Source: Picochlorum sp. SENEW3
Lineage: Eukaryota
DNA: 64,000 bases
Reading direction: 5' to 3'
Assembly (NCBI GenBank): GCA_034226945.1
Contig: CP120459.1
Coordinates: 868,001-932,000, forward strand
In this document: piece after piece, positions 12,202 through 64,000 of the stretch
Numbering within the stretch: the stretch's first letter is position 1
Layout of the letters: the number at the start of each line of letters is the position of its first letter
Made by a program: the position numbers and the translations under genes
Notes under the pieces: generated by a model
The model's input: only the letters and a program-made list of their open reading frames with translations
Databases searched by the model: none
What the model was told of the DNA's origin: nothing

Positions 12202-13671
12202 TCATCTTTCTTCTATTTGAGGCAAGTTCATAATTTCCGCTACAGCTTCTGCTGCGCTCAAGTGTCCGTTTAAAACTTGTGCAACTGCCGTCAATACTGG
12301 CAGCTGCACTCTGTATTTCCGTGCCAGTGATACCACGACACCAGCCGTCGGCACACCTTCCGCAACTTGTGACGACGATGCTAATATATCCACTAATGCT
12401 TCTCCTTTCCCCAGACGAACCCCAACCGATCTATTTCTACTCAGAGAACCATAACAAGTCAGCATAATATCTCCCAGTCCTGACAACCCACTCACAGTTG
12501 CAGGTTTTGCTCCCATCTTTTCAGCAAGCCATCGAATTTCCGAGCAACCTTGTGAAATCAACGCCGCCATTGCATTATTGCCTAGCTCCAAACCTTCCAC
12601 GATACCTGCCGCAATAGCAAGGACATTCTTCAGTGCCCCACAAATCTCCACACCAATGACATCAGTGGTAATATTCACCCTCATTGTCGGAGATGCAAAC
12701 AAGTTCTGAACCTTTCGACACAATACTTTATCTCTACTCGCTGCGACCAGGCCCGTTGGGCGCTTATCCATAACTTCCTTGGCAAAAGATGGGCCAGATA
12801 AAAAGACCATGGGCTGCTTTCTTCCAAGCGCTGATGGTATCAAGTCAGACATTATTTTTCCAGTAGTCACCTCAATCCCTTTGCTAACAGAAATAATTGG
12901 AAGATCTGGATCAATATAATCTTTTATACTCTTCAAAAAGTCCCTAGAATGCTGCACTGGAACCGCATGAATAGCATATTGGGCCCCTTTCAACGCAGCT
13001 TCTGCAGACGTTGTCGCAGTCACCTGGTCAGGAAGCCTAAAGTCTGGCAAATATCTAGAATTATAATGTGAATCATTGATATCCTTGCACAAGTATGGAT
13101 CGCGGAGCAAGAGAACAATCTTCATCTGTGAGTGTTGGCGTGCCAAAGCCACCCCAATTGCAGTCCCGAAGCTCCCACCACCAAACACAACCACCTTATC
13201 CAACCCTACGTCCCCTGCCGACCTCGCAGCTTCTCTTTCACGCAAATTCTTCGACCACCGCATCAAACGAGCCCAAGAATTCTTGATCCTTCTCTCCTCC
13301 TCTGGAGGATACATGACCAACTCACCCCCTGCAGCAACAGCAGGCATAGCCCTCGCCCGTGAAGCCTCCTTCAGCTTTTTAATCCTTTCGCGCTTAGTCA
13401 AATTTTGTTTCGGGTTCTGCGCACTTCCATCCGATGGCACCACCGTGCAATACTCGTCGCCACCCTCCAAAGACACCTCCTCATCCCCAGGTGGGGATGC
13501 ACTGGCCCTCCCCAGCATACTCACACCATCGTCGCACGCTCTCCATTCCCCATACATTTTACCATCCATATATCTAGGAATAGTACGCTGCTGCCATCCA
13601 GCGCAATGCGACCTCCTCCGACCAGGAGTCCCCAGCGGCAGCACGACTGCGGATGCATAACACAACACCAT
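12202..13671 (-). CDS. gpsA: NAD(P)-dependent glycerol-3-phosphate dehydrogenase, plastid-targeted
   Basis: Motifs VFGGGSFGTA, SVSKGIE, LSGPSFAKEV, GALKNVLAIAAG, GDIMLTC..SRNR; N-terminal extension. Confidence 0.95.
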   Translation of the reverse strand: MVLCYASAVVLPLGTPGRRRSHCAGWQQRTIPRYMDGKMYGEWRACDDGVSMLGRASASPPGDEEVSLEGGDEYCTVVPSDGSAQNPKQNLTKRERIKKLKEASRARAMPAVAAGGELVMYPPEEERRIKNSWARLMRWSKNLREREAARSAGDVGLDKVVVFGGGSFGTAIGVALARQHSQMKIVLLLRDPYLCKDINDSHYNSRYLPDFRLPDQVTATTSAEAALKGAQYAIHAVPVQHSRDFLKSIKDYIDPDLPIISVSKGIEVTTGKIMSDLIPSALGRKQPMVFLSGPSFAKEVMDKRPTGLVAASRDKVLCRKVQNLFASPTMRVNITTDVIGVEICGALKNVLAIAAGIVEGLELGNNAMAALISQGCSEIRWLAEKMGAKPATVSGLSGLGDIMLTCYGSLSRNRSVGVRLGKGEALVDILASSSQVAEGVPTAGVVVSLARKYRVQLPVLTAVAQVLNGHLSAAEAVAEIMNLPQIEER

Positions 13672-14128
13672 CCCCTCTAGCCAGCTGCTAGCGAAAAATT
13701 ACCCCTTTGTGATATTAAAGTGGACTTTTATTGCAAAATGCGCCTCGTTCTTGCTACTATGTGTCTCCGTCGTGAGCTCTTTCGACAACCAAACGTCCAA
13801 ATCCTTCAATATCTAGTCATGCGCGCAAAACAACTGCTATGCCTGATCCTCCCCACAAAATATAACGAATTCATCATCATGAGGTTGCATTTGGACGCAT
13901 CGAATGACCATGGGAGCCAAGGTTTACGACAATCCTAGCCAGTTCAAAGTCACCTATCAAACGATTCGTTGATAGGGCACAGTAATCTATCAATTTCAAC
14001 TGACGAACTGTCTCGTTATCCACCATTCAAGGCATAAATAAACTCCCCATCACCCCTATTGTGCATTATTTAAAAATATATATCACTGCTGTAGCGAAAT
14101 TCGTTGTCCCTGTGTCTGAAAGGGTCGT

Positions 14129-14767
14129 ATGTCAACGACAAGGCATTCGTTTAGACACCAAGGGCAGACTGTGTACGAGTGGGATCAAACTCTGAGGTGT
14201 GTTACATATATGGTGTTTTTGGATTCTGGTGTGGCTGCGGATATGACGATGGAGAGTCTGTGGACGATTGTTGAAAACGGTGGGTGGTTGGGCGGGAAAT
14301 CAGCGTCAGTCGCTCTATACATGACGTTGCTCGGTTGCCTTCTCCATCTAATACATGTATAATTCAAATACAGTGACGTGAACCTGTATATCTCTGGTAT
14401 ACCAGAGGGGGTGACCGGAAAGCAGTTGGATATCGTCATAAAACCGACGAGGGTATCCGTGGGTATCCGTGAGACGCCTCCATATTTAGATAAAGAGTTG
14501 ACTGAGATTGTGAAAGCAGAGGAATCTCTGTGGACGTTTGATCCTGACACGAGAGAGCTGCATATTCAACTGTGCAAGGCTGAAGAGGCTCGGGTGTGGG
14601 ACTGTGTTTTTGTTGGGCATCAGCAAGAGCAGAGCGGGGATCCCGAGGGTGATAAAAAGCGTTTGATGCTTGAGCGCTTTCAGAGGGATCATCCTGGGTT
14701 TGATTTTTCTGGTGCAGAGTTTACAGGGAACGTGCCTGATCCGAGGACGTTTCATCCTGGTAGATAA
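14129..14767 (+). CDS. NudC/CS-domain co-chaperone (NUDCD2-like)
   Basis: Exons 14129-14196 and 14374-14767. Motifs YEWDQTLSDVNLYI, KAEESLWT, KKRLMLERFQRDHPGFDFSGAEFTG. Confidence 0.9.
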
Positions 14768-16736
14768 TGATACTGCAGAGGTGTGGGCCGTGCGGGCTGA
14801 CGCCCTGCATGGTGGGCAGAACTCATAAAAGTATTGGGTGTCGCCGAATGTCTAGAATTCAAGGGGATGGGCAGGCGGCGGTTGTTAGAAGAGGACGGTT
14901 TGTGTGTTCTCGTGTTTCACAGAGAGAGGATCATCAGAGCACCGTTGATGAGTATTCTGCGGGAGTAGATGTTGAACGTGGTGTATTGGACGTGAGTTGC
15001 GTTGGTTTTGGAAGTCGTGGTGTGGATGCATTGAGACGTGTGCACGAGTCTGGGTGCATGCCTAGGAGGACAACATCGCTATGGTGCCTTGACACAGATA
15101 TGAATATGATTGAGGCTGCAAAGGAGTATGCGGATGTTATTCATATGGATTCAAATAAAGGAGGGTTGGTTCCGGATGATGTGATGCGAATTGTTGGAAG
15201 GACTGCGTCGGATGCGGGAGGACAGGGGAATATTGGAAGTGGGGATGGATGCTTGGCATTTGTGATTTCTCCATCCACAGGAATCCCTGGAGGGCGTGAT
15301 TCCTTATTGCATATTACGCAATCATTTCGTGCGGCAGGGCATTTTACTGTCGCTGCAGTTGTGTCTCCATTTGACTTTGAGGGTTCGTTGAAGAAGAAAC
15401 AGTCGGACGAGTTGGTTGCTGAACTCTCTGCACTAGCACATGTTGTTGTGGTATTGGATCAGGATGTATTGCTTCGACAATCATACGGGGATGAGCAGCA
15501 ATTAACAGTTGCTGAATCAACAGAAATAGCAAATACAGCCCTTGAGCACACTGTGAGATGTGTGGTACAAGCAGTTCTTGCATCAGAAATGTTGAAGAGC
15601 ACGCAAGGGGGCCTTATGTGGCATGGAGAAGAGTTGAGACACTTCAAACGGCTCATTTCCCCACCATTACAGAACCTTCTCACTGGAAAAGGAGTTGGTG
15701 TGTTAGGCAGAGGCCTGGCATCGCTACCCCCAAAGGCTGCTTCTTCAATGGGCCATACATCTGCATTGATGCACCTTGCATCAGATGCTGTTGCAGGGGC
15801 AGCGGAGAGTCCATTCATGGAAGGCGTCGTGGAAAAAGCACGAGGCGTTTTATGTTGTCTTAGAATTCCAGATAGTGCATCTCTCGCAGATGTGTTGGGC
15901 ACTACTGATGATGTTGAGATGGACAAGGCATACAGGATGGCTGCACAAGCATCTGCTGGGGCTCTGAGAACAATAACTGGACGAGGATGCGATGATTTCT
16001 TGGTATTTATAGAAAAATATAGACCTGAAAACCCCAGCTCGATTCAAGTTGAAGCTACAATGCTGGTTCTTTGGTCGAATGATGCTGCTGGTGCACCGAA
16101 ACCTTCATGGAAATCATCATGGAATATACCAGTGCATCAAAGCACCAAAAAGCAGGATGCTGGGGACAAGGGGCAGAAATCGTGGGGTATGCTTTCTGCT
16201 ATTGCTGGAGGTGACGGTAAAAAGTCCAATGTAGCTGCAAAAGAAAAGAAAACGCCATCGCCTCCAGTTGTAAAGCGACCAGTTGTTGTCAAGCCTTCCC
16301 GTGAAGAGAAAGCAGCATCTCGACGCGGAGCCCAACAGAATGTAACAGTTGGAGACTATTTGGCAGAATCCTTGACCGCACAATCCTTAGATCTTCCACC
16401 AGCTGTATGTTGTGTTGTATACAATGTCGAATCATGTTGAGAGTACTACTGACCATCCATTGTCCACATGTTTTGCAGGCTGCCCGCTGGAGGCAAGAGC
16501 ATCGATCAGGCAGCATGAAACAACGCCGCCTTGTTGTCTGGGAAGTCGATGAGGAGGAGGAGTGGGAGTCCGAGACACCCAGAAACCCACTGAAAGCGAT
16601 TCTAGGAGACAAATCTCAACCAAAGCAGAACAAAAAGGTGAATGTCCGTGATAGAGTTGCAGGAATCCTTGCCCAGGATAGAGATGAAGCATGGGAAGCT
16701 CATGTTCGAGACACCATGTCAAATAACAACAATTAA
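14767..16736 (+). CDS. ARC3-like degenerate FtsZ-domain plastid division protein
   Basis: Exons 14767-16404 and 16479-16736. Transit-peptide-like N-terminus; VSCVGFGSRG, TVAAVVSPFDFEG, VVVLDQDVLL, TVAESTEIAN are FtsZ-like. No GGGTG tubulin motif. Confidence 0.7.
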
Positions 16737-16749
16737 ACTGTATCTTGAC

Positions 16750-17685
16750 TTATCTTTTTATTACATCTCCATGTACATCTACTCGCACCCCAGATGAGGC
16801 CTTTTCCATTCCAAGTACCAACACAGACTGCACAGTTTCAACTGCCCGAGGCAAAATATCCTTCTCCACCTGCACCTTTTCTTCCTGCCTAAAACCATTC
16901 AGCACATGGCTCACTACATCCCGACCTGGCTCGGGTCGACCTATACCAATCTTTACCCTAGCAAATCCATTAGAACCTACACAATCTATGATTGATCTCA
17001 TCCCATTCTGCCCACCATGTCCACCCTTTGCTCGCAGCCTCACACTCCCAAGATTCGTATCCAAATCATCATACAGTACAATTAAATTACTCAGGGGAAT
17101 CTTGTAGTAATCCAGCAGCTTTGAAACCCCTTCCCCAGAATTGTTCATAAATGTCATTGGTTTGGCTAGCAGCACTTTCCGATCGCATATATACCCACGA
17201 CCCACATGACAATTCTTCTGCAACCTTTCTAACGAAATCCCATGCGCCTTGGCAATCTCATCCACTGCCATGAACCCCACATTATGACGGTGATGTGCAT
17301 ACTTGGGTCCAGGATTTCCAAGACCCACAATCAACCATATACTCCCACCATCCTCCACGGATGAGGAATGTATGTTTCCATTCATCCAAGCACTACCTAC
17401 AGCATGCTGCTGCGACCGCTGTGTTGAATGAAACAACCCCATCCTGTGTTGCTGCCTCCTACAACCTGTGTGTGTGTAACTCCTTCTACCCACGCACGAA
17501 CACACTCTCCAGCCTTGATGATACTCTGCGGAACGTCTTCTTGATCCTTGATCTGTTCCTAACACGCTCACAAGACGATCAATTCCAGCAACAGTCTTGT
17601 TGGTACTCTCCCTCCCTTTTCTGCTGTACCCACTGCTCAAAGCGTGAATACGAGACAATGTACCATGCAAATACTTCATATCCAA
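16750..17685 (-). CDS. pth: Peptidyl-tRNA hydrolase, organellar (Pth/CRS2 family)
   Basis: Motifs LIVGLGNPG..RHNVGF, LAKPMTFMNNSG, YDDLD, GGHGGQNG; long targeting extension. Confidence 0.93.
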   Translation of the reverse strand: MDMKYLHGTLSRIHALSSGYSRKGRESTNKTVAGIDRLVSVLGTDQGSRRRSAEYHQGWRVCSCVGRRSYTHTGCRRQQHRMGLFHSTQRSQQHAVGSAWMNGNIHSSSVEDGGSIWLIVGLGNPGPKYAHHRHNVGFMAVDEIAKAHGISLERLQKNCHVGRGYICDRKVLLAKPMTFMNNSGEGVSKLLDYYKIPLSNLIVLYDDLDTNLGSVRLRAKGGHGGQNGMRSIIDCVGSNGFARVKIGIGRPEPGRDVVSHVLNGFRQEEKVQVEKDILPRAVETVQSVLVLGMEKASSGVRVDVHGDVIKR

Positions 17686-36818: not shown

Positions 36819-39295
36819 CTAGTGCTTTTTGCCAGTGAATTTGTCAGCCCATGCAACCGGGTCTTTGACTTTTATCTCTTTCTTGGCCTTTGAGGCTATA
36901 TCTGGACACCCACAGTGAATGAATGCAGCGACAATCTTTGCAGCATGGGAGTCTTTGAGCTTCTTGCATGTTCCTTGCACATGATTCTTCCACAAGAGTT
37001 CTGTAAAGCGTTTTGCAGAGTCGCCATTCTTTTCATTGGACGCGAGGATTATTCTACGAAGGGCTCGGCTTCCATAATAATCGGTTAAGAGCGTGTCGGC
37101 AGACTCCAAGACAGCTTTATGAATTGCATCAATGTCCTCAACGCCAGAAAGCTCTTCAAGAAAGTTATTTTCACCCCCGACACACAACTCTACCACAATG
37201 TCGGATGTGTACTGCTTGCATATATACTGTGAAGATGATGGACTAACCGTCTTAAAAATTGCTTTCCAAAAGCCCGCTTTTAGAATTTCATTTCGTCGTA
37301 CCGAGTCATCCTTCTTGCTGACACCCAATTGGGTTTCTATAGTTGTCGCCTCACCCCCATCGTCTTCCGGTTCGATTCGTTTAGAGATTGTTTTGACAGG
37401 TGGTTTCATTATTCGAATAATCTCTGGGGAGAAATATCTTGGGCAATATGGATGGAGAAGCTGCAAGAGAACTTTGTGTGCATGCTTGTCCTGAACCACT
37501 TGTGATATTTCAGACTGCGATATACAAACATGCATAGTTAAAACACATGCAGTAGATATATTGTGGGCTCGTCATGGAAAGAAAATTCCCTATTCTTTGA
37601 CTAGGATCCCTCAGACACACACCTTGCCAAAAGGCAAGGCCTGCTCAAAATCGACACTCATCAGCGCAATTGCTCTGTCCGCCCGTCGACATATTGTCTT
37701 CATAGGAATGCCTCGAAAGAAAAGATACATACGAGTATGGACACATACCTCTAACTCGGATATTATAATCTTTCTAAGGAGCGCAGTATCATCTGTCACT
37801 GAGAGAGCTGTTGCAATTGCCAGCCATCCCCATTCATCCAAGACTGCGGCCAGTACATGTCCCTTGAACGATCGTATCGCTTTCTTTCTATCTTTTGCGC
37901 TTCCGTAGGCGAGGACCATGCATGCTGCTTCTGCTCCCTCATGTGTATGAATCATGTGCAGTAATGCATCCCCACTAAGTGTTTCTACCGAATCTTCAAC
38001 CAGCGATGATGGAGCAGCCTTCATATACTCGGATATCAAGGTATGGGCTAATTGATTATCTACCAACCCTTTCTCAATCACCGGAGTAAGAGTGCTCGCA
38101 ACATGACGAATAATGGCCAATTGTTTCTGACCCTCAACTGCTGACAGCAACTGTGACAGAGATTCAGGTGCACCTTTGGTATTGTTGAGCGTGCCAGAGT
38201 CAAACAAAGCATACTCTTTCCCATAAAATTCTGCCGCCATCATCCTACGCTGCTCCACGTGTGCCACAGAGTACAAATCATCTAGAACATGGGTTCCTGC
38301 AGGATGCCGTAAAAGCTCTGGAGCCTTACCTTTGAACGCCTTGAAGTACACTGCATCACATACAATATATATAGTAATCATACTATTGCATTGATGATGA
38401 AATGTCTCATGTCTTGGAATCTGTGGAATCTAGCAAATAAGGTTCCCAGAATGAAATCATGACATTCATCTATGCTGGATCATGACCAAGATGGAGTGTG
38501 TAGGAATATGCACAACCCCTGGTTTCACATCCAGCACATGACACAAAAATACAATCATATGGCCTCATTAACAATAGTGTGTCTTCAACAGAACCAGCGA
38601 CAAATGCCTCTGGAACGATGATCAGGAAGATAACGCAGTTTTGTAACATCAGCGGCCAGCACGTTGAATATATCGACAACCATACCTGGCAACTGCGATT
38701 TAGGAGCCGTAACAATGAGCTTACTCATAATGAACCTCGCATACGGATTTTTGGAAAGCTCCACCATCCTGGGCAACAATTGCTTTTGAATAATAATCCT
38801 ATCATCTTCTGTCCCGTGCTTCACGCACGATTGAATAATTCTGGATGCTGTATGCGATGCAGCAAGATCTGCTACTCTGTCTTCACACAGGGCTAGTATT
38901 TTCGATACCAGATCTGCTTTCGCATCCTTTGGTGTACCACTCTGTCTCAGCTTTTCCCACAGTGCCGTAGCTTCCTGAATCACATGGAAATTCTTCTGCC
39001 TCTTCGCCTTCCTCTCCAAGGTATGCTTTTTCTTTTCTTTTCTTCTACTACCACTGCAAACAACAAGCGATTCGTCTCAGTGCATGTCTTGCATGCAATA
39101 CAAAACTCAAAAGCCTACGCACCCTTCGGAAGGATCCACGCCATCGACCTCAGCATGAGAGATTTTTTCATCTTTAGTTTTCGATCCTGTAGCTGATGTA
39201 TGGCCATTCTTCCCAGCAGGAGAAGTCCCTGTCTGCTTCCTCTTCTTCTTCTTCAACGCTTGACTCGCATCTCCTCCAGCAGAGCCCATCGTCAT
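36819..39295 (-). CDS. PUM24: Nucleolar Pumilio-repeat protein APUM24/Puf6/PUM3
   Basis: Exons 39295-39123, 39053-38686, 38350-37749, 37514-36819. Motifs LWEKLR, HTASRIIQSCVKHG, HMIHTHEG..GSAKDRKKAIRSFK, CPL region SKKDDSVRRNE. Confidence 0.92.
37606..37709 (-). ncRNA. Box C/D snoRNA, U43/SNORD43/snR70 orthologue
   Basis: Stem attcct/gggat, C-like ATGAAGA, guide CGACGGGCGG plus D' CAGA (complementary to 18S CCGCCCGUCG), C' TGATGA, D CTGA. GACGGGCGGACAGA matches SNORD43 as recalled. Confidence 0.9.
38400..38537 (-). ncRNA. Box H/ACA snoRNA in PUM24 intron 2
   Basis: Hairpin tgctggat/atccagca, H-box AGATGA (38471-38466), second hairpin tcatg/catga, ACA (38405-38403) plus 3 nt; ~138 nt total. 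Confidence 0.75.
38561..38657 (-). ncRNA. Box C/D snoRNA, snR68/snoR68Y-like
   Basis: ggcc/ggcc terminal stem, C-like CTGATGT, 12-nt guide CTGCGTTATCTT before D' CTGA (complementary to LSU AAGAUAACGCAG), D-like ATGA. Confidence 0.78.
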
Positions 39296-48224: not shown

Positions 48225-49943
48225 TTAATCAATAAATTGTACCATACTTTCAAGTCCTCCAAAGTATAGAGGATTATCACCCTTGTCGCCATTTTCTGGC
48301 AATGAGGATGTGTCATCTGATTCCTTTCTCTGCCTTTGCATAGCCAAGAATTCCATTGCTGCACTGTCGCAATCGTATCCTAACGATCGCTCCACCATCA
48401 CAACGAACATTGCATTGGCCCATTCAAACTCTGGACGTGTGCATGCGGTTGTTCTGTTTGCATGCACACTCTCATGCATGAGTCCGTTGCCACATTGCGT
48501 TTGTAAAAGCATCTTTGCTATTCGAGCCCTCTGTTCGATTGATTTATCCGTCAGAGCTTCTGTTACCATTGCAAGCGGCCATACATAGCCAGGCATCGTA
48601 TGTTCAGAGCCAATGCCTTGGATATCCTTCCCTCTAAAGTACTGTGGGTTGATGTCAGGATCTAAAAGGCGCCTTCTGGTTGCTGCATACACCTCCATGT
48701 CAAGCTTCGGCCAGCCCAGTAAAGGAAGAGACAACAACGACGGTAAGTTCGCATCATCAAAATCTGCGAGAACGCCACCGATACCATCGACTTCATATGC
48801 GTATACGCGGACTCCATCCCCAACTGTCACTATACCATACCTCTCAATGCCACTCTCAATATCTGACAGCAATCTGGCGGATTTGCTATGCAGCGCGTCA
48901 TCCATCCATACTACTTTGTTCATCTCTATCAGTTTATAAAGTGCTGAAGCGGCATATACATTTGATGGAATCGAGTATCCGTAGAAGTTGGGGTCATCAG
49001 AAGGTCTAAACCCACTCCAGGTCATTCCTGTGTACCCAGTCTTTTTCCCCAAACCTTGTCGCTGCAGCTCAGAGTATCTATACCTCGATTTCGAATCATG
49101 ATGCTGTTCAATAATCCATGTATCGATTACAACCTTCACAGCATCAAATACGATTGGATCGTGAAGTAAATGCTCCGGTGCGTGGATATCCTTGTGGGAG
49201 AAGTAGTTCCACAGAAACTGAATAAAATACACACTCGAATCCAATTCATAATTCCGAGTCGCGACCCACCCTCCCCTCCCTAAAAGTCTGGAAAACTTAT
49301 CTAGCGTATCAATATCTCTCCATGCAGGTGAGAAGGCATTCGCATACGGATCTTGCACGATGAAGAACGCTTGTGTCCTCAGCAATCCTTCTATGATTCC
49401 TCTGAGAAACGGATGATGGCCAATCTTTGACAGGTATATGCCAACCTGCACGGAGCTATCTCGAATCCACATGTCTGGTATATCTCCTGTTGCTACAAAT
49501 GTCCATCGACCCAACGAATGGCTCTTTGCATACCCTCGTGAGAGAGTGTGATATAGTGTTCTTCCACAGAGAGCCATCATGTCACCAACAGTCTCCTCTC
49601 CCAAAGCAGCCCTCAACTGCATAGCATACATGCTGAATGTAACAACCACAAATTTGAGAATTAATATAAGAAGCACAAACACAAGTACCTTTTGTTGATC
49701 CTGTGAGAACGTGGCGTCATGTACATTGTCATGTGCCCAAAAATCCTTTGGCAATAGTGAATTTCCTTTCTTGCTGTGTTCCTCTTTCAGGCGCACATAC
49801 TCGAGATCGTTCATCAAGTCATGATCTTGCAATGCTATATTCGACACTTGATATATTGATACTGTCATCAGCATGATGAAGATGGTGACCAATACCAACA
49901 GGGAGTTTGGCCTCCTGCTGCTTGGCACTGAGCCCTGGAACAT
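48225..49943 (-). CDS. GH125 alpha-mannosidase-like protein with N-terminal TM anchor
   Basis: Exons 49943-49689 and 49616-48225. Motifs TGDIPDMWIRDS, DPYANAF, YELDS, SGFRPSDD, YAYEVDG, DDANLPSLLSLP, MHES..FEWAN. Confidence 0.9.
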   Translation of the reverse strand: MFQGSVPSSRRPNSLLVLVTIFIMLMTVSIYQVSNIALQDHDLMNDLEYVRLKEEHSKKGNSLLPKDFWAHDNVHDATFSQDQQKVLVFVLLILILKFVVVTFSMYAMQLRAALGEETVGDMMALCGRTLYHTLSRGYAKSHSLGRWTFVATGDIPDMWIRDSSVQVGIYLSKIGHHPFLRGIIEGLLRTQAFFIVQDPYANAFSPAWRDIDTLDKFSRLLGRGGWVATRNYELDSSVYFIQFLWNYFSHKDIHAPEHLLHDPIVFDAVKVVIDTWIIEQHHDSKSRYRYSELQRQGLGKKTGYTGMTWSGFRPSDDPNFYGYSIPSNVYAASALYKLIEMNKVVWMDDALHSKSARLLSDIESGIERYGIVTVGDGVRVYAYEVDGIGGVLADFDDANLPSLLSLPLLGWPKLDMEVYAATRRRLLDPDINPQYFRGKDIQGIGSEHTMPGYVWPLAMVTEALTDKSIEQRARIAKMLLQTQCGNGLMHESVHANRTTACTRPEFEWANAMFVVMVERSLGYDCDSAAMEFLAMQRQRKESDDTSSLPENGDKGDNPLYFGGLESMVQFID

Positions 49944-50170
49944 GGCGACACCTAATCTCTCTATTGCGATGATGAAGACTGTATCTTTACTTCATATATA
50001 TATATCAACGTAGAAGTAAAAGAGAAAAGATGAGTTCTTTCTGCGCCAGCTTTAGCGCGAGCTTGTCAACGCAGAGGTTCAGCACAAGTACAGTTGGGAT
50101 ACCAAATCAAGAGCAACATCAAGGATAAAGATACATATGCAACCTCAAATTTACAAAAATAATTTCAGTT

Positions 50171-51802
50171 TTATGCAACGCACAGCAAAGCCGCATGCTG
50201 CCCACCAAACTCCAACTGTAATGTCTTTGAAGGCTGGAAGCGCTTTGTCTGTGCCACCTTCCGTGGGATGACCTCATCGTCATCATCGTCACCCTTGGCG
50301 AGCTGATTGCTTGTTCCAAATCCCCATAGATATACTGATCCTTTTTGGTCAAAGCAGCCAGACACAGCAAGCCCACCAGCGCCCCCTACAACCTTGACAC
50401 CATCCAGTCCATCAACAGGATGAATGGCAGGACAAGGGGCATCAGAGGACACATCCGCTCCTTGCTGCCCTAATCTACCATATGTAGGTCTACCGCACGA
50501 CAAAAGAGAATCTTTGTCAGTAAGAAAGAGTGTGTGATGCTGTCCAGGATAGACTCGCGAGATGGAGTGCTTGCTGCCAGACTCAACCAAGGTGAATGAA
50601 TATACAATGTCCTTACCAGACACTCCCAGCTGCCCATAATTATTCAATCCGCACACATATATAGAGCCATCGGAAAGCGTAACAAACGTTGAATACGTTC
50701 CACAGGCGACGTCAGTCACAGTACTTGAATGCGACCCACGTGGCCTGCGTATCGCACATGCAGTTGGCGTCAGAAATGTAGTCAACCTAACGCGATCGCT
50801 CATGCGTGGTCCTACGCGCCCCAGCTGTCCCTGCTGCCCCGATCCCCAACTCATCAACTTTCCATTCTCAGTCACAGCACAAACATGGTCGGCACCAGAA
50901 GCTATACGGACAAGAGGAGGGTGTGCCTCCCCTGGTGCATACACCTCTGTCGGAATCAATTGCAATTTCTTCTCCACAGAGAATCCCATGACACCACTAG
51001 CATCTCTGAATGTTCCCCACGACCACACAGACCCATCATCCATCAGGGCGCACGTGTGACTGTCCCCAGCAGACAGCTGCACCACGCGTATGCTTGAAGG
51101 CAGCAACACCTTGCCAGGAACATATGGATCCCCACGCTCAGAATGCTCTTTTCCTTCTGGTGACTCATCCCATATTTTATCATTTGTTGGACGACCTAAA
51201 GCGCCCTCATCATTCACACCCCAGGAATACACAACACCATCTGCTGTCAGTGCCACTGTATGCATGCCACCACACACCACCTGAACAACACCCGTCCCTT
51301 CCAAATCCAAGGGGAAAGGCCTCAATTTCTCCGTCACATCCTCTCCAAGCCCTAACTGACCGCAATCGCCGTCTCCGAACACGAATATAGTCCCCTTTTC
51401 CTGCAATCCATCATACCATGGTTGTTGTCAAATGGTCCACAGACACATCCCTTAATCTACAGATGTGTCGGCTTTTTTATAGAACACACGTACCTTGGGA
51501 TGAGACACATGAGTCACTATATGCCGCTTTACAGGGAGCACACGGGCCTTTTTCGTCTGTCGTTCAGTAGCCTTGGCTGCCTTCTTTCTCTTTTGAGGCT
51601 TGGCTGCCTTCTTCGTAGTATTCTGAACTTTGGCTGATTTGGACGGACGATTGACTCGTTTCGTAACCCCTTTCGTTCGTTTCCCTACTTTTTTTTCCTC
51701 AGCCACACTGTCCTTTGGAGCACGGGCAGTCTTCTTCGTCATCCTGGCGCTGGGCCTGCCACGATGTCCACTATTTGACCCGACTCGTCTTGCTACTGGC
51801 AT
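50171..51802 (-). CDS. RCC1: Regulator of chromosome condensation RCC1 (Ran GEF)-like
   Basis: Exons 51802-51494 (basic NLS-like tail) and 51400-50171. Motifs GGMHTVAL..SWGVNDEGALGR, WGTFRD, GLNNYGQLG, GGQH. Confidence 0.88.
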
Positions 51803-57854: not shown

Positions 57855-60800
57855 TTATGGATTTTCCTCAACATCAATTTCTGCCACAACATCGTCGTCG
57901 ACATTATGCGCCTCTCCTTCGTCATGATCAGCCTTGATACATACTACTTGATCAGCATCTATAGCGCCAATCATGTCAGCTGGCTGGTGAAGAGGACTTG
58001 ATGGATCCTTGCTTTGTAAAATCGTACCAAGCTGTTCAGAGAGCTGATTTGGATCAAACAATGTGTACATGGAGCTCTGCAAACACAATATAGAAATCTA
58101 AGCGCAAGCATGGACTCCATCATCTCTCAGCATAGCTACACGTACCTCATCTGAAGGAACCAGGGAGATCCATGTCGTTCGGAAATCATTGTCAGCTGCA
58201 AGCCTTTCGGATATTTGATTGCATACAAGAAGGGATGACGCAGCCCATTTTAAGAACTTTTCACCATAATTGTAAACAGAAGCAAATGCGTTGGGATTCT
58301 CTTTGAGGACTCCCAAGAGTATGACTGTCATCAAATATGTCTTGACTGCATTACGGCATAGCAGGCAGGAATCCATGAGCCCAGGGACCTCAGTACGGGA
58401 CTGTGAGGCTACTTGTTCAGGTAAAGACACATCTTCGATCACAAAGCCCGAGACGAAACTCCTGCAATTGTTATGATGATCAGTCTTAGGTATGGATCAG
58501 TAGATAAGGCATGCTTCAAACAAAACGTACAAAATTCTGGAGACAGCATTGGAATCTTCCATCGTCAAAACATCTACAATGGAAGATGCCTCTGATGCTA
58601 GCTCCCTTACACTAGAGGAATCCTGGATGTGAAGCAAAATAGCAGCTACCAGAATATTCGAACGAGATAGATTCTCCCAAGCAAACCATTTCATGAAGAG
58701 TATGCTTTCCATCGTCTCAATCTTTCCTGGGAGTAGATAGAATCGAATCGCCTCTAAATATGCTGAATTTTCACTTGAAAAGATTCCAGATGGTAGCTCA
58801 TTAATGTGTCGCTGTTCAGAGGACAATCGCAAAACAAATGGATTTGACAACTGCAAATCTTTGTCCTGGGTAGAAAGGCTAGGGAGTCTATGCATTCGTA
58901 GCAAGGGAAGAACCAATCCCAAGTATGGATCTGCGAAATCCTGAGCTTGCCGTTGAGACCTTGTGAGTTGACGCCATAAGTGAAAGATACTTCCAGAAAA
59001 GGACACTAGGTCGACAATGCTCTCCAAGAGAACGCCCTCCACATTCTTGATTGATCGCATTTCGTACAGGACTCCAATCATATCTTTCCATTTCACCGTA
59101 GCCGATGGATAGTTGGCAAGGCTGGAGCGCACGTGGCTTATGACTGACTCGATGATTCGTGCAACAGTGGATTTGGAATTTTCCATGCCATCTGACAATG
59201 AACGAATACTTGCCGCCAGTATTTGGCTCATCAGAACCCGTGATGATTTATAAGGCGATTCAAGTGCAGAGAGAGCACAAGACAATTGACCATTTGGCGG
59301 AGGAGTAAAAAATTCCAGCGCTGTCTCTGCTACTGACGGCAGAGAACAAGCCTTCTTTAATGGCTCTATCATTTCCAATACTGGATCCACCTTTTCATTT
59401 GATCCGTCAAATGGGCTGAAAATATATACCTGGCAGATATATTTGATACATAGCGAGACAGTCTGTCGAACAGTTGATTCAGATGCCTTGTCTTCCCTTC
59501 GATCATGCTGATAAAAGATTTCATTACGAAGGTGCATATTAGGACCCGCTGAACCATCAACCCTTTTGGACTTCAGTGCACGCGGCCCATCAAGAGCCAT
59601 GGACATTTCTTTTGACAGCATCAGCATGAAATTGGCAAGAGCTGGATGAAAAGCATGCATCCTATTGAGCTCCATGAAATTATTCAGTACCATCTGCTCT
59701 CTTTTCTCTGCTGGGATGAGATGGAAAAGATCTAAAAATCCAATATTCTCTTTCTTATTATCATCTACTCTGTCATACATAAGCATGTATGCAGAATGAT
59801 TACGCTGATACCGTCGATCTGATCCCTCTGGAGTGAACAAACCACCAAAGCAGTCCCGATCAATATTAGATATGTCCCAGGGCGTGACAGTATCATCATC
59901 GAAGCAGAACCATTCACCAGTGCTTCTATCTTTTGCATATGAATAATAGTGCCCAGCAAAGGCCGTCCCGCTGTGGATGATGATCCCTGACAATTCGTAC
60001 ATGTACTCCTCGCTGTCATTTGCATGGGAGGTGTCTACATAAGGCTGCATGTCCAAGTGCAGCGGGAACTCGAATCTGTCTTTGATTTTCCATCTAGAAA
60101 GAGTCTCAAAATCCCACTCAAACCTCTTGAAATGCAATACGAGCGTCTCTGGCAAACGCTTCAAAAGAGTTCTTTTCTTGGCATCCACTTTGCGCCCCAA
60201 CTGTTCACAAAACCATTGATTCTGAGCATCAAGAGTCTCTACTGCGACGTAAGATTCTAAGCTCTGAATAAGATTTTCCTTCCCCCTGACATCAAGAGAA
60301 ATTTGGTAGAACTCTTCTTCTCTCTCAGACCGCAAACCATCGTGCCCTGGAACCTCAATAATTTGGTTGAATGACCCGCCAAGGACTGAATAAATTACTC
60401 TGTCCTGTCCCGTAGCTTTCAAATGCTCGTCAATTGTATCCTGAAGCCTTGTAAAAAATTCATAGGCATCCTGATGTTCTTGCACATTGACTGGATTTCC
60501 ATCATAGTCTTTGAATACTTTCCAAAAGATTGATGGGTCGACTGCTGGACATAGGCCACCTGACATTTGCAAAAATATATGTCCCAGGGCATCTAATACT
60601 GGGCATGAGGAATCCTTTCTATCATTCAGACATAGCAGAAGATTTTTTCGCACATTTGGCTGCATATATAATTGTTGGAATGTAGCATTCATATAGCATG
60701 TTGCTCCACCATTCAAAAGCCCACAATAAGAATCCACATCTCTCACTTTTCTCTGCACTGTGTTGTTGTATAACCTGGGGAAACCTCTCTTTGACTTATC

Positions 60801-63800
60801 AAAGACATTCATCAGCTCTTCATGGAGGGTTTGCCAGCAGTTGTGGCATAGCAAAGCGCAGGAGAGAAGAATTCTGTACAGGCTTTCTTGCTCCCTCAGA
60901 GAGTATAATCCATTCTTCACTACTGTGATGTAGTGCCCCTTATCACCAACAGCGCAGCAATCATCTGCACTGTGAAGTTTAATTTCAGGGAAAAGGTACT
61001 CTGATATGATTTTTGAGACAAGAGGCTCCATTGTCGTTGGCATCCCAATATCAGCATTTTGGAGGGCAAAGTGCAGCGATCTTGAGTAGTTTTCAATAGG
61101 TTCGTGCTCAGCCAAACTCTTTTCGATGCACTCACAAAGATTCATTGCTAGAGGTACCATTTCATTGTTTAGCTCGCCGTTTGAATGCCCTACCAACTGC
61201 ACACAGAATGCAGTTTCTTCACTGGAGGGATTCTTTGCCAATATGATATCCCTTGCAATCTCTTTAAAGAATCTCTTTCCCAAGCCATGATTCACACTAA
61301 ATGAAAGCGCTTCCTGTACTGCTAAGCTTCTCACAAGATCCGACTCCACTGCAAGCAAGCGTTTGAATATCTGAATCAGTTGCCCAACAAGGGATACCTC
61401 CAATTCACCTTTTCCATTGCACAATCTGAGAATCACCTCAAGACTGGCACAACAGATGAAGTACAAATCTTCTGCAGAATATTTTTTTGAGTTATTCGTG
61501 CAATCAGTGATGATTAAAAGAGCACTCTGTAATGAGCGGTCTGTGAGATCATCACTGCTTTCACTGCATCCCAGAGAGATGTGCTGCACCAGGTGAATAA
61601 ATATATCAGCTACCTTTCCCTTATTCGAATCGAGTCCCTTCTGATAGACCTCTTGCAATACCTGAAGGAAGTTCAGGGGATGCTGTATGATTTCTGAGCT
61701 TTTTATCCCATCCCCTATCATAGGATTCATCTGCGAATACAGGATGAGGCAAGAATACAGCATGGCTGCGGAATTTGGCTCTCCTTGAGATTGATTTAGA
61801 CCTATGAAGGATTTGAACTCTATCATATCAGTGCTTTTCATTCCTGACAGTGTAAATTTGCCTACGGCATCAAAAACAGGCAATTTGAGTAGGAGATCCA
61901 TTGATAGAATAGAAATATCTCTCAGTATCTTGCGGGCTGAGTGTCCATCTTTCGCGCTAAAATCCAGGTCCCTGGAATTCCCCATATTTGCAAAGCTGAT
62001 CAGTATTTTGAATAGCTTCAAATCATTTGATAGAATTTGCGCCACTCGAGGTCGGCTTTTAGAACACTGATTTACCATTGCCCCATGTGGCATGGCAGGT
62101 GTGAAAACTGCCATCACAGGGGACTCTCCTGAAATGCACGAAGATACGCTTGCTGCATTATCTGATATCTCACGACCCTGCACGTTTTAGAAGAATAATC
62201 ATTCAGTTACGCTAAAATGTAGAGATCGATTAAATCGAAATCGCACCCCTTGAAACAGCCTAAAGTTTTCCTGAGGTATAAAATAACCAACAAAGTGTGA
62301 TGCTTTCCTGGACACCATTCCGCGAAAGTCTCCAACCAACGCGTTCCTTGGGCATGATATTATTTCAACAAGCTTTTGATTTGCTGAGACTCTTGGGCTG
62401 AGGGGAAGTTGTTGGAAATTAGCACAGATGCAAACATCATCACCCTTGTAGGAAGAATCCAAAGGTCTGTCTTCCAGCTGATTGGGAGCAAAAGCTCGAA
62501 TCAAGTCTTTGAAATACTTCATGAGCTGCTTTATTATTTTTAATCTATCGACACCACTGTATGTCTTCATGGAAACGGATTTCCATGGAATTGCCTCATC
62601 AAGAGTTGCATCAAACATCATCTGATAGGACTCATGGAATAAATCCTTGCATTTTTTCACACTTTCCATGACTTGATGAACACTACTATCGTCTCCAACA
62701 ACGCTGATCTTTTCGGATAATACTGAGCTAAGACTTTTGGATGCCTCTCTTGCGACTGCCTCATTCGAGCATGACACAACAATATCTGACAGGAATGAAA
62801 TGACAACATCCCACAGTCCCATTGAGCTATTCTCTTTGCTCATTTCCAGCAGAAAAGTATATGAGGACTCTCCCGCGTATAACACAGTATTATAATCGAA
62901 CGCTGACGCAAGAAAACCAGTAATACACCGCCATGCAGTGAAGGTCAAATGTTTGGCTTGAACCTTGTCGAGGGCAATTAAAAGGAACTCGTGAAGAGTC
63001 TCACATTGGACTCCCTTCTCCCCCTGCACGAAAGATACAAGAAGATTCCAAGCAAACTCATTCAGATTATGAGAGTACTTTTGAGCATTTGTCCAACCGA
63101 GGATCGTCCTCATGAGCTCGATGCTGACATAGTAGTCCGAGTCATTCAGAACGAGTTTCAGAACCTTGTTGAAAATAGTCAGTGCTTCCCTGTTCGCTTC
63201 AGAAATGGGCCTCTTTTCCACCAGAGAATGTTCTAAAATCCTATCATACAGCTTCACAAGACCTTTCGAGAAGGCTGCATTTGGGTTGAGCTCCTTATAA
63301 ACCTGAGACACAACTGCTCTGGAAATATGGCGACCTTGAAAAACATGGAGCATCACCTGCAGGGGCCTCTTCATATCTTCTATCGAGTCTACGGTGAGTT
63401 TAGACATACAGATACGAATTGCTTCCGCAATAACTTTCTCAACCCCATCCACCTCCTCATATGCTTCACACACATCTAGAAACAAACTTACACTTCCTAC
63501 ACTCTCTGGAACCGTGTCATCAAGAGCAAAGTTCAAACTGATACCCATCAGGCGATAGATCAAAATTCCATATGCATCATATTTCGAAGCAGTAGTCAAT
63601 AGATCGCCAACATATTTGACTGTTGAAGACGACAAATGTGTATCTGCAAGCTTCTGGCACAACAATGCATCTGCATTGTCTTTTGGCATACTACTTGCCA
63701 AACTGCCTAATAATTGAGCAACATTGCACTTTATTTCTTCAAATGTTCCTTCATCGTCCAAAATAGACCACAAATATTGCATGTGGTCTTCGCTCACAGC

Positions 63801-64000
63801 GCCATATATTGCCAAACGCCGAAGCAAATCCTGCATATCTTCAATATATTGAGAGTGGTGAAGATTTGCTTTCAGCATCGAGGACAAAATGTCTGTTGAT
63901 ACAATCCAGGATATATGCTCTGGTAAGCTATGGTGCCTATCATTCATCGAGGAAGACCTGTGAGATGGGATGGCCTGACTCACAATACCATCTAATGCCT
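57855..64000 (-). CDS. Large ubiquitin-specific protease, USP9X/USP24/USP34 (fat-facets) type, 5' end beyond window
   Basis: Exons >64000-62247, 62177-58531, 58461-58146, 58076-57855. Motifs GLLNGGATCYMN, EHQDAYEFF, LHFKRF, HSGTAFAGHYYSY, WFCFDD; LKANLHHSQYIE in the helical N-terminal region. Confidence 0.9.

Follow-up and report, generated by a model that had tools for sequence, protein, structure and literature searches.

A conserved NudC/FtsZ-like gene pair in Picochlorum sp. SENEW3 as a probable bicistronic nuclear locus

Exclusively polycistronic transcripts have been described in the green algae Chlamydomonas and Chromochloris (Gallaher et al., 2021; PMC7896298), and 41–44 bicistronic loci have been curated in the trebouxiophyte Auxenochlorella protothecoides (Duenas et al., 2025; PMC11892635/PMC11291117). 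The Auxenochlorella loci are reported to have median lengths of 291 nucleotides (nt) for the first open reading frame (ORF1), 40 nt for the stretch between the two ORFs and 54 nt for the 5′ untranslated region (UTR), with an observed/expected ratio of 0.43 for ATG upstream of ORF2 (PMC11291117). At some of these loci the stop and start codons overlap; leaky scanning has been demonstrated in vivo and reinitiation has been argued against (PMC11291117). Our literature search on polycistronic or bicistronic transcripts or Iso-Seq found nothing on Picochlorum. In this study, we analysed a pair of forward-strand genes in a 64,000 nt stretch of Picochlorum sp. SENEW3 DNA (assembly GCA_034226945.1, contig CP120459.1, positions 868,001–932,000; hereafter the window, numbered from its first nucleotide). 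The first gene encodes a NudC/CS-domain protein (ORF1), and its stop codon overlaps the start codon of the second, which encodes a predicted FtsZ-fold protein (ORF2). The pair is likely to be a conserved bicistronic nuclear locus that is translated via leaky scanning.

The stop codon TAA at 14765–14767 closes the NudC/CS frame and shares one A with the ATG at 14767–14769 that opens ORF2, forming a TAATG overlap (14765–14769). This overlap had been pointed out in an earlier note on this DNA, and the two alternative ORF2 methionines named there, at 14809 and 14848, are both present and in frame. The gene models could be refined. ORF1 consists of two exons: exon 1 (14129–14196) is separated by a GT..AG intron of 177 nt (14197–14373) from exon 2 (14374–14767, including the stop codon), and the full protein has 153 amino acids. 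This intron belongs to a computed model, is skipped at joints in contigs of the sequencing runs X2 and X7, and keeps its position in six related loci (L001–L006). ORF2 comprises exon 1 (14767–16404; 546 codons), a GT..AG intron of 74 nt (16405–16478), again with joints in X2 and X7, and exon 2 (16479–16736), which carries a conserved C-terminal motif region and the stop codon; its product has 631 amino acids. A minimal 5′ UTR for a transcript of the pair is given by a spliced contig of run X2 (record 10) that starts at 14095; the resulting leader (14095–14128) is ATG-free, and a scan of 13990–14128 found no ATG upstream of the ORF1 start.

The locus shares its general design with the green-algal bicistrons: a small ORF1 is followed by a longer ORF2, each has its own start and stop codons, and the spacer between them is very short or zero. 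It also shares with them the short 5′ UTR, the weak ORF1 start, the depletion of ATG upstream of ORF2, the colinearity across Trebouxiophyceae and the mishandling by automated annotation. The locus shows every sequence-level feature of the Auxenochlorella bicistron class and is probably a further case of an arrangement known from green algae. Two differences should be mentioned. At 462 nt, ORF1 is longer than the Auxenochlorella median and encodes a widely conserved domain protein, and the present locus is known from sequence and short-read contigs, whereas leaky scanning at the Auxenochlorella bicistrons was shown in vivo.

Conservation of the arrangement was examined in 31 metagenome loci encoding ORF2 relatives, which were obtained from a contig scan. 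A NudC homologue lies immediately upstream of ORF2 on the same strand in all 19 loci with enough upstream sequence (L001–L007, L013, L015–L018, L021, L023, L025 and L028–L031); the remaining 12 either have their first base within ORF2 or extend upstream by less than about 1.1 kb from its residue 123 or a later residue. The synteny that the earlier note had proposed to look for in related algae is therefore present in every informative locus. In the protein database, NudC and ORF2 matches were found on equally long contigs in seven cases, and each of the two ORFs shows conservation of its protein sequence. The junction is readable in the window and in nine loci, representing eight distinct lineages (L004–L006 are near-identical), and in each of them ORF2 starts at the first ATG, in any frame, that comes after the NudC stop. 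The gap between the NudC stop and the ORF2 ATG is −1 nt in the window, −4 nt in L001, 5 nt in L003, 13 nt in L002, 31 nt in L004–L006 and L007, 96 nt in L013 and 119 nt in L025. The frame of ORF2 relative to NudC is 2 in the window, L001, L003 and L025, 1 in L002, L004–L006 and L007, and 0 in L013. No alternative methionine precedes the conserved domain of ORF2 in L001, so the overlapping ATG is the conserved ORF2 start. Only the window and the relatives nearest to it, L001 and runs X1 and X2, have the stop/start overlap itself, whose form differs among them: position 14765 is T in the window and G in X1, X2 and L001, which shifts the NudC stop one codon on to TGA and turns TAATG into an ATGA overlap (GAATGA). 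As a separate observation, the first ATG past the NudC stop in L015–L018, L021 and L023 lies 14 nt downstream and opens an ORF of two codons (ML followed by a stop).

The region that a scanning ribosome would have to cross before reaching ORF2 is strongly depleted in ATG. In the window, the 461 nt of spliced sequence from the ORF1 ATG to the ORF2 ATG contain a single internal ATG (14666–14668), which is in frame (the methionine of RLMLERF) and in weak context; the observed/expected ratio is about 0.1. Dinucleotide shuffles of this stretch gave a mean of 9.96 ATGs (standard deviation 2.2), and none of 5000 had one or fewer. Codon resampling of ORF1 that preserved the protein gave a mean of 4.0, with 1.1% of the resampled sequences at one or fewer, and in 783 coding stretches of 461 nt, drawn from 20 long ORFs in the 64 kb window, the lowest count was four. 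The related loci contain no internal ATG (L004–L006), one (L003) or three (L002), against 5.6–9.5 expected, and the first 1500 nt of ORF2 have an ATG count at or above expectation. The start codons themselves also differ in context. At the ORF1 start, a pyrimidine occupies position −3 in five of six loci and G is found at +4 in none of the six; in the window these two positions are C and T, respectively. At the ORF2 start, position −3 is a purine (A or G) in the window, L002 and L003, and likewise in L001 as judged by eye; for comparison, 15 of the 20 first ATGs of long ORFs in the window have a purine at −3. Judged by the general −3/+4 rule rather than by a genome-specific matrix, the ORF1 start context is weak and that of ORF2 is better.

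Contigs of the RNA type cross the junction. Record 10 of run X2 (576 nt) has the NudC intron spliced out and extends colinearly to 14847, 80 nt past the NudC stop. Beyond this point two variant contigs of 132 nt and one of 186 nt chain via 30 nt overlaps to 15105, and a contig of 2419 nt spans the rest of ORF2. Among the RNA-type contigs no splice joint crosses the NudC/ORF2 junction. A contig of run X1, which is probably DNA, passes through intron 2. The X2 pattern is consistent with a bicistronic mRNA and argues against a fusion made by splicing. The contig depths in X2 (113 for NudC and 170–293 for ORF2) cannot rank the gene parts and were not used as evidence. Upstream of the pair, 13881–14007 is uncovered between the GPDH and NudC contigs of X2, X7 and X9 and is crossed by X1, which is at most a weak hint of a transcript end.

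A single transcript is the most likely explanation for the combination of tight and conserved spacing, ATG depletion, weak ORF1 context and a junction-crossing RNA-type contig. It is the conservation and the ATG depletion, not the single overlap, that raise the bicistronic arrangement above chance. One capped mRNA would begin at or before about 14095 and carry two independent ORFs, the first yielding a 153-residue cytosolic NudC/CS co-chaperone and the second a 631-residue FtsZ-fold protein with an organelle-type presequence. Most scanning ribosomes would start at the weak ORF1 AUG and a fraction would bypass it; the latter would find hardly any AUG on their way and would then initiate at the ORF2 AUG. 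According to this mechanism the TAATG overlap would be the extreme of a series of short spacers and not a coupling device. The earlier proposal of one mRNA encoding two proteins thus gains indirect support from the spacing, the ATG depletion, the ORF1 context and the X2 contig.

Several observations weigh against a bicistronic locus of this kind. By name, the NudC/FtsZ-like pair does not appear in the supplements of PMC7896298 and PMC11892635, which cover Auxenochlorella, Chlamydomonas and Chromochloris, and no size-matched pair is present in the Auxenochlorella supplementary table (file 2 part 1); the one near size match there, UTEX250_A05.10385/10380, was rejected because it is an FAD-binding protein locus. 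In ten intron-rich loci (L015–L018, L021, L023 and L028–L031) the first recognizable ORF2 exon lies 830–900 nt past the NudC stop. Distant NudC homologues are also ATG-poor; these are rough counts on tblastn segments, low everywhere and too approximate for telling lineages apart. Part of the depletion may thus be a family trait, or the distant genes may be bicistronic as well. Run X2 comes from a relative with 95–99% identity and not from the same strain, and RNA is a guessed label for X2 and X7 (two studies), given solely because their contigs skip both GT..AG introns. Record 14 of X2 runs from ORF2 into the convergent peptidyl-tRNA hydrolase (PTH) gene, as short-read contigs merge overlapping transcripts; contig continuity is therefore no proof of single molecules. 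Finally, the genome is very compact, an RCC1-like gene and a GH125 gene being separated by 227 nt, so that a promoter inside NudC is conceivable.

An alternative to a bicistronic mRNA would be two separate, overlapping monocistronic transcripts, with an ORF2 promoter and transcription start site inside NudC and with NudC mRNAs ending inside ORF2. We regard this as unlikely, even though it would suit the high gene density, the convergent genes only 13 nt apart, the merging of ORF2 with PTH in X2 and the missing entry in the curated Auxenochlorella list. It does not account for a spacing of −4 to 119 nt kept in eight lineages with an ATG-free spacer, and ATG depletion throughout ORF1 together with a weak ORF1 start would be unexpected if ORF1 were never scanned toward ORF2. 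A further argument concerns TGTAA, which had been proposed as the poly(A) signal and whose absence after the NudC stop had been taken to indicate a shared transcript. The next TGTAA on the forward strand was correctly placed at 16269, and its absence at the junction differs from the tandem RCC1-like/GH125 pair, where TGTAA follows the first stop after 18 nt. With 102 copies in the window and 113 predicted by shuffling, the motif shows no enrichment. It occurs within 60 nt past 10 of 38 ORF ends compared with 4.9% of random positions; 39 ends were listed, including that of NudC itself and some exon ends, and one of the 39 has no downstream TGTAA. TGTAA is thus a real signal that is used by a minority of genes here. 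Few genes use it and ORF2 itself has none for 741 nt past its stop, so its absence after NudC is suggestive but weakly informative.

Termination-reinitiation is another route by which ORF2 could be reached on a bicistronic mRNA. Viruses of the calicivirus and influenza B type use termination-reinitiation at overlapping stop and start codons, and TGGGA is the motif of the calicivirus termination upstream ribosome-binding site (TURBS). The present locus shares the UAAUG/AUGA overlap with these viral systems; here, however, the overlap is unconserved, the ORF1 start is weak and there is no conserved upstream TGGGA, the motif being absent within 120 nt upstream of the window's NudC stop and present in two of ten junctions. 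A bicistronic mRNA from which ORF2 is made mainly by termination-reinitiation would draw on the overlapping codons, TAATG in the window and ATGA in L001, X1 and X2, and short spacers are reported to favour reinitiation (PMC11291117). On the other hand, gaps of 5–119 nt separate the two ORFs in the other lineages, where all three relative frames are represented; ORF1 has 153 codons, while the efficiency of reinitiation is reported to drop with the length of the upstream ORF (PMC11291117); and a weak ORF1 start with ATG depletion is the opposite of what reinitiation would need. With the overlap unconserved, coupling by termination-reinitiation is unlikely, and we give this route very little credence. 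The translational coupling through UAAUG suggested earlier is accordingly not favoured, and the remaining features match leaky scanning as described in Auxenochlorella.

A broader proposal combines both routes. The NudC/FtsZ-like pair might be an ancient, obligate bicistron throughout the class Trebouxiophyceae that fixes the amount of the cytosolic co-chaperone relative to a plastid FtsZ regulator's precursor, perhaps because that precursor is handled by NudC, and the collapse of the spacer to UAAUG/AUGA in the window lineage would add true reinitiation after a 153-codon ORF to leaky scanning. We consider this combination doubtful, and it would, if true, be a cellular eukaryotic case of virus-like or bacterium-like translational coupling.

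In four public gene models the CS domain and the FtsZ-like part are fused: NCBI P0030 (Nannochloris), P0031 (Micractinium) and P0038 (Chlorella sorokiniana), and JGI P0054 (Picochlorum), the last being 92% identical to the window protein across the aligned part. In L025, which is close to the Chlorella model, a true stop follows ...DLDRQ and is succeeded by the 119 nt spacer, after which an ATG stands at the head of an Ala-rich presequence; the Chlorella-type fused model splices out a stop, ORF2 ATG and presequence of this type. A single NudC + FtsZ-like fusion protein, arising by splicing, read-through or frameshifting as these four models might suggest, is scarcely credible, since RNA-type contigs run colinearly past the stop with no joint across it, the relative frame varies between 0, 1 and 2 with lineage (which argues against read-through or frameshifting), L025 retains the very stop, ATG and presequence that the fused model removes, and a presequence behind a 153-residue domain could hardly serve as an N-terminal targeting signal. 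Bicistronic loci are stated to be 'frequently misannotated by automated approaches' (PMC12633428), and the public NudC/FtsZ-like fusions are probably annotation artefacts.

The ORF1 protein matches the Pfam CS domain PF04969 (E = 1.5e-7, passing the curated cut-off) and has 74 homologues at E up to 1e-5, with a common C-terminal HPGFDFSGAEF...PDPRTF block. As judged from these matches, it is a NudCD2-type CS-domain protein. It shares the CS domain and the C-terminal block with the co-chaperones of the NudC domain-containing protein 2 type, which are found from algae to apicomplexans. It differs from that family in that several tightly spaced lineages carry other residues in place of some or all of the conserved methionines (of RLMLERF and RTFMGG), which fits selection against AUGs upstream of ORF2.

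ORF2 gave no Pfam match when searched alone. A profile of 17 ORF2 family members matches FtsZ chains in the PDB over the GTPase domain (E = 1.6e-13). The AlphaFold model has a mean predicted local distance difference test (pLDDT) score of 68.7; residues 71–440 (14977–16086) are confidently modelled, and residues 1–70 (14767–14976) are predicted to be disordered, with pLDDT below 50. Compared with FtsZ structures using Foldseek, the modelled core gave E = 1e-20 and template-modelling (TM) scores of 0.75–0.79 on target length. The glycine-rich GTP-binding signature, read against the profile alignment, is degenerate and corresponds to SPSTGIPGG in the window. On the strength of the profile and the model, ORF2 is a divergent FtsZ-fold protein. 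Its first 50 residues are basic and nearly without acidic residues in eight lineages; being basic, acid-poor and predicted to be disordered, the presequence looks like an organelle-type, transit-peptide-like sequence, and plastid targeting may be supposed. Residues 441–631 (16087–16736) consist of a low-confidence linker of about 90 residues and, beyond it, a C-terminal region of strong conservation (LAESLTAQSLDLPPAAARWRQ ... RDRVAGVLAQDRDEAWEA) without a Pfam match.

All named relatives of ORF2 are trebouxiophytes, and among labelled ESM-Atlas clusters the streptophyte ARC3 family comes closest (score 0.90, 186 of 256 features in common). [quoted passage not shown] ORF2 resembles ARC3 in its FtsZ-derived core and in an N-terminal presequence consistent with a plastid location. 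For the stromal location and the inhibition of FtsZ2 assembly that characterize ARC3, the one hint in ORF2 is this basic, acid-poor presequence. It differs from ARC3 in that MORN is missing, its place being taken by the disordered linker and by ORF2's own conserved C-terminal motif region; a scan of 17 family members at E up to 0.1 detected no MORN domain, and none was detected in the window protein. The description of ORF2 as 'ARC3-like' in the earlier note thus holds for the fold and for the nearest labelled cluster and fails for the defining MORN repeats, and without these repeats the term is apt only in a loose sense. ORF2 may nevertheless work like ARC3 despite failing this defining feature of membership.

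Some further features of the window deserve mention. An Rfam scan of 13500–17300 gave no match at E up to 0.1. The convergent PTH gene (Pfam match) occupies 16750–17679 on the reverse strand, with its stop 13 nt from that of ORF2; the 3′ UTRs of the two genes overlap, as a single RNA-type contig (X2 record 14, from 15107 to beyond 17300) spans both. Other convergent pairs in the window are equally tight (25151/25123, which overlap, and 44005/44019). The RCC1-like gene and the following GH125 alpha-mannosidase gene (48225–51265, reverse strand), with 227 nt from stop to ATG, illustrate the ordinary closeness of tandem genes. Two close ORF pairs were considered as bicistrons and rejected. The first (62199/62114, within 58497–63947 on the reverse strand) comprises ORFs of 582 residues (USP9X-type ARM repeat) and 1205 residues (UCH domain), 84 nt apart, which look like exons of one USP9X-like deubiquitinase gene; the second, 37611/37535 (36819–38381), likewise looks like exons of one gene, with PUF/NOP9-like and CPL domains.

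The main practical result concerns annotation: at least four public gene models probably merge two proteins wrongly and thereby lose the ORF2 start and presequence. The locus would enlarge the set of known green-algal bicistrons by a deeply conserved pair, one in which ORF1 is no tiny peptide and the ORF2 product may regulate plastid division. With its natural spacer series, from −4 to 119 nt, it lends itself well to distinguishing leaky scanning from reinitiation. ORF2 itself defines a MORN-less trebouxiophyte family with the FtsZ fold, which may stand in for ARC3.

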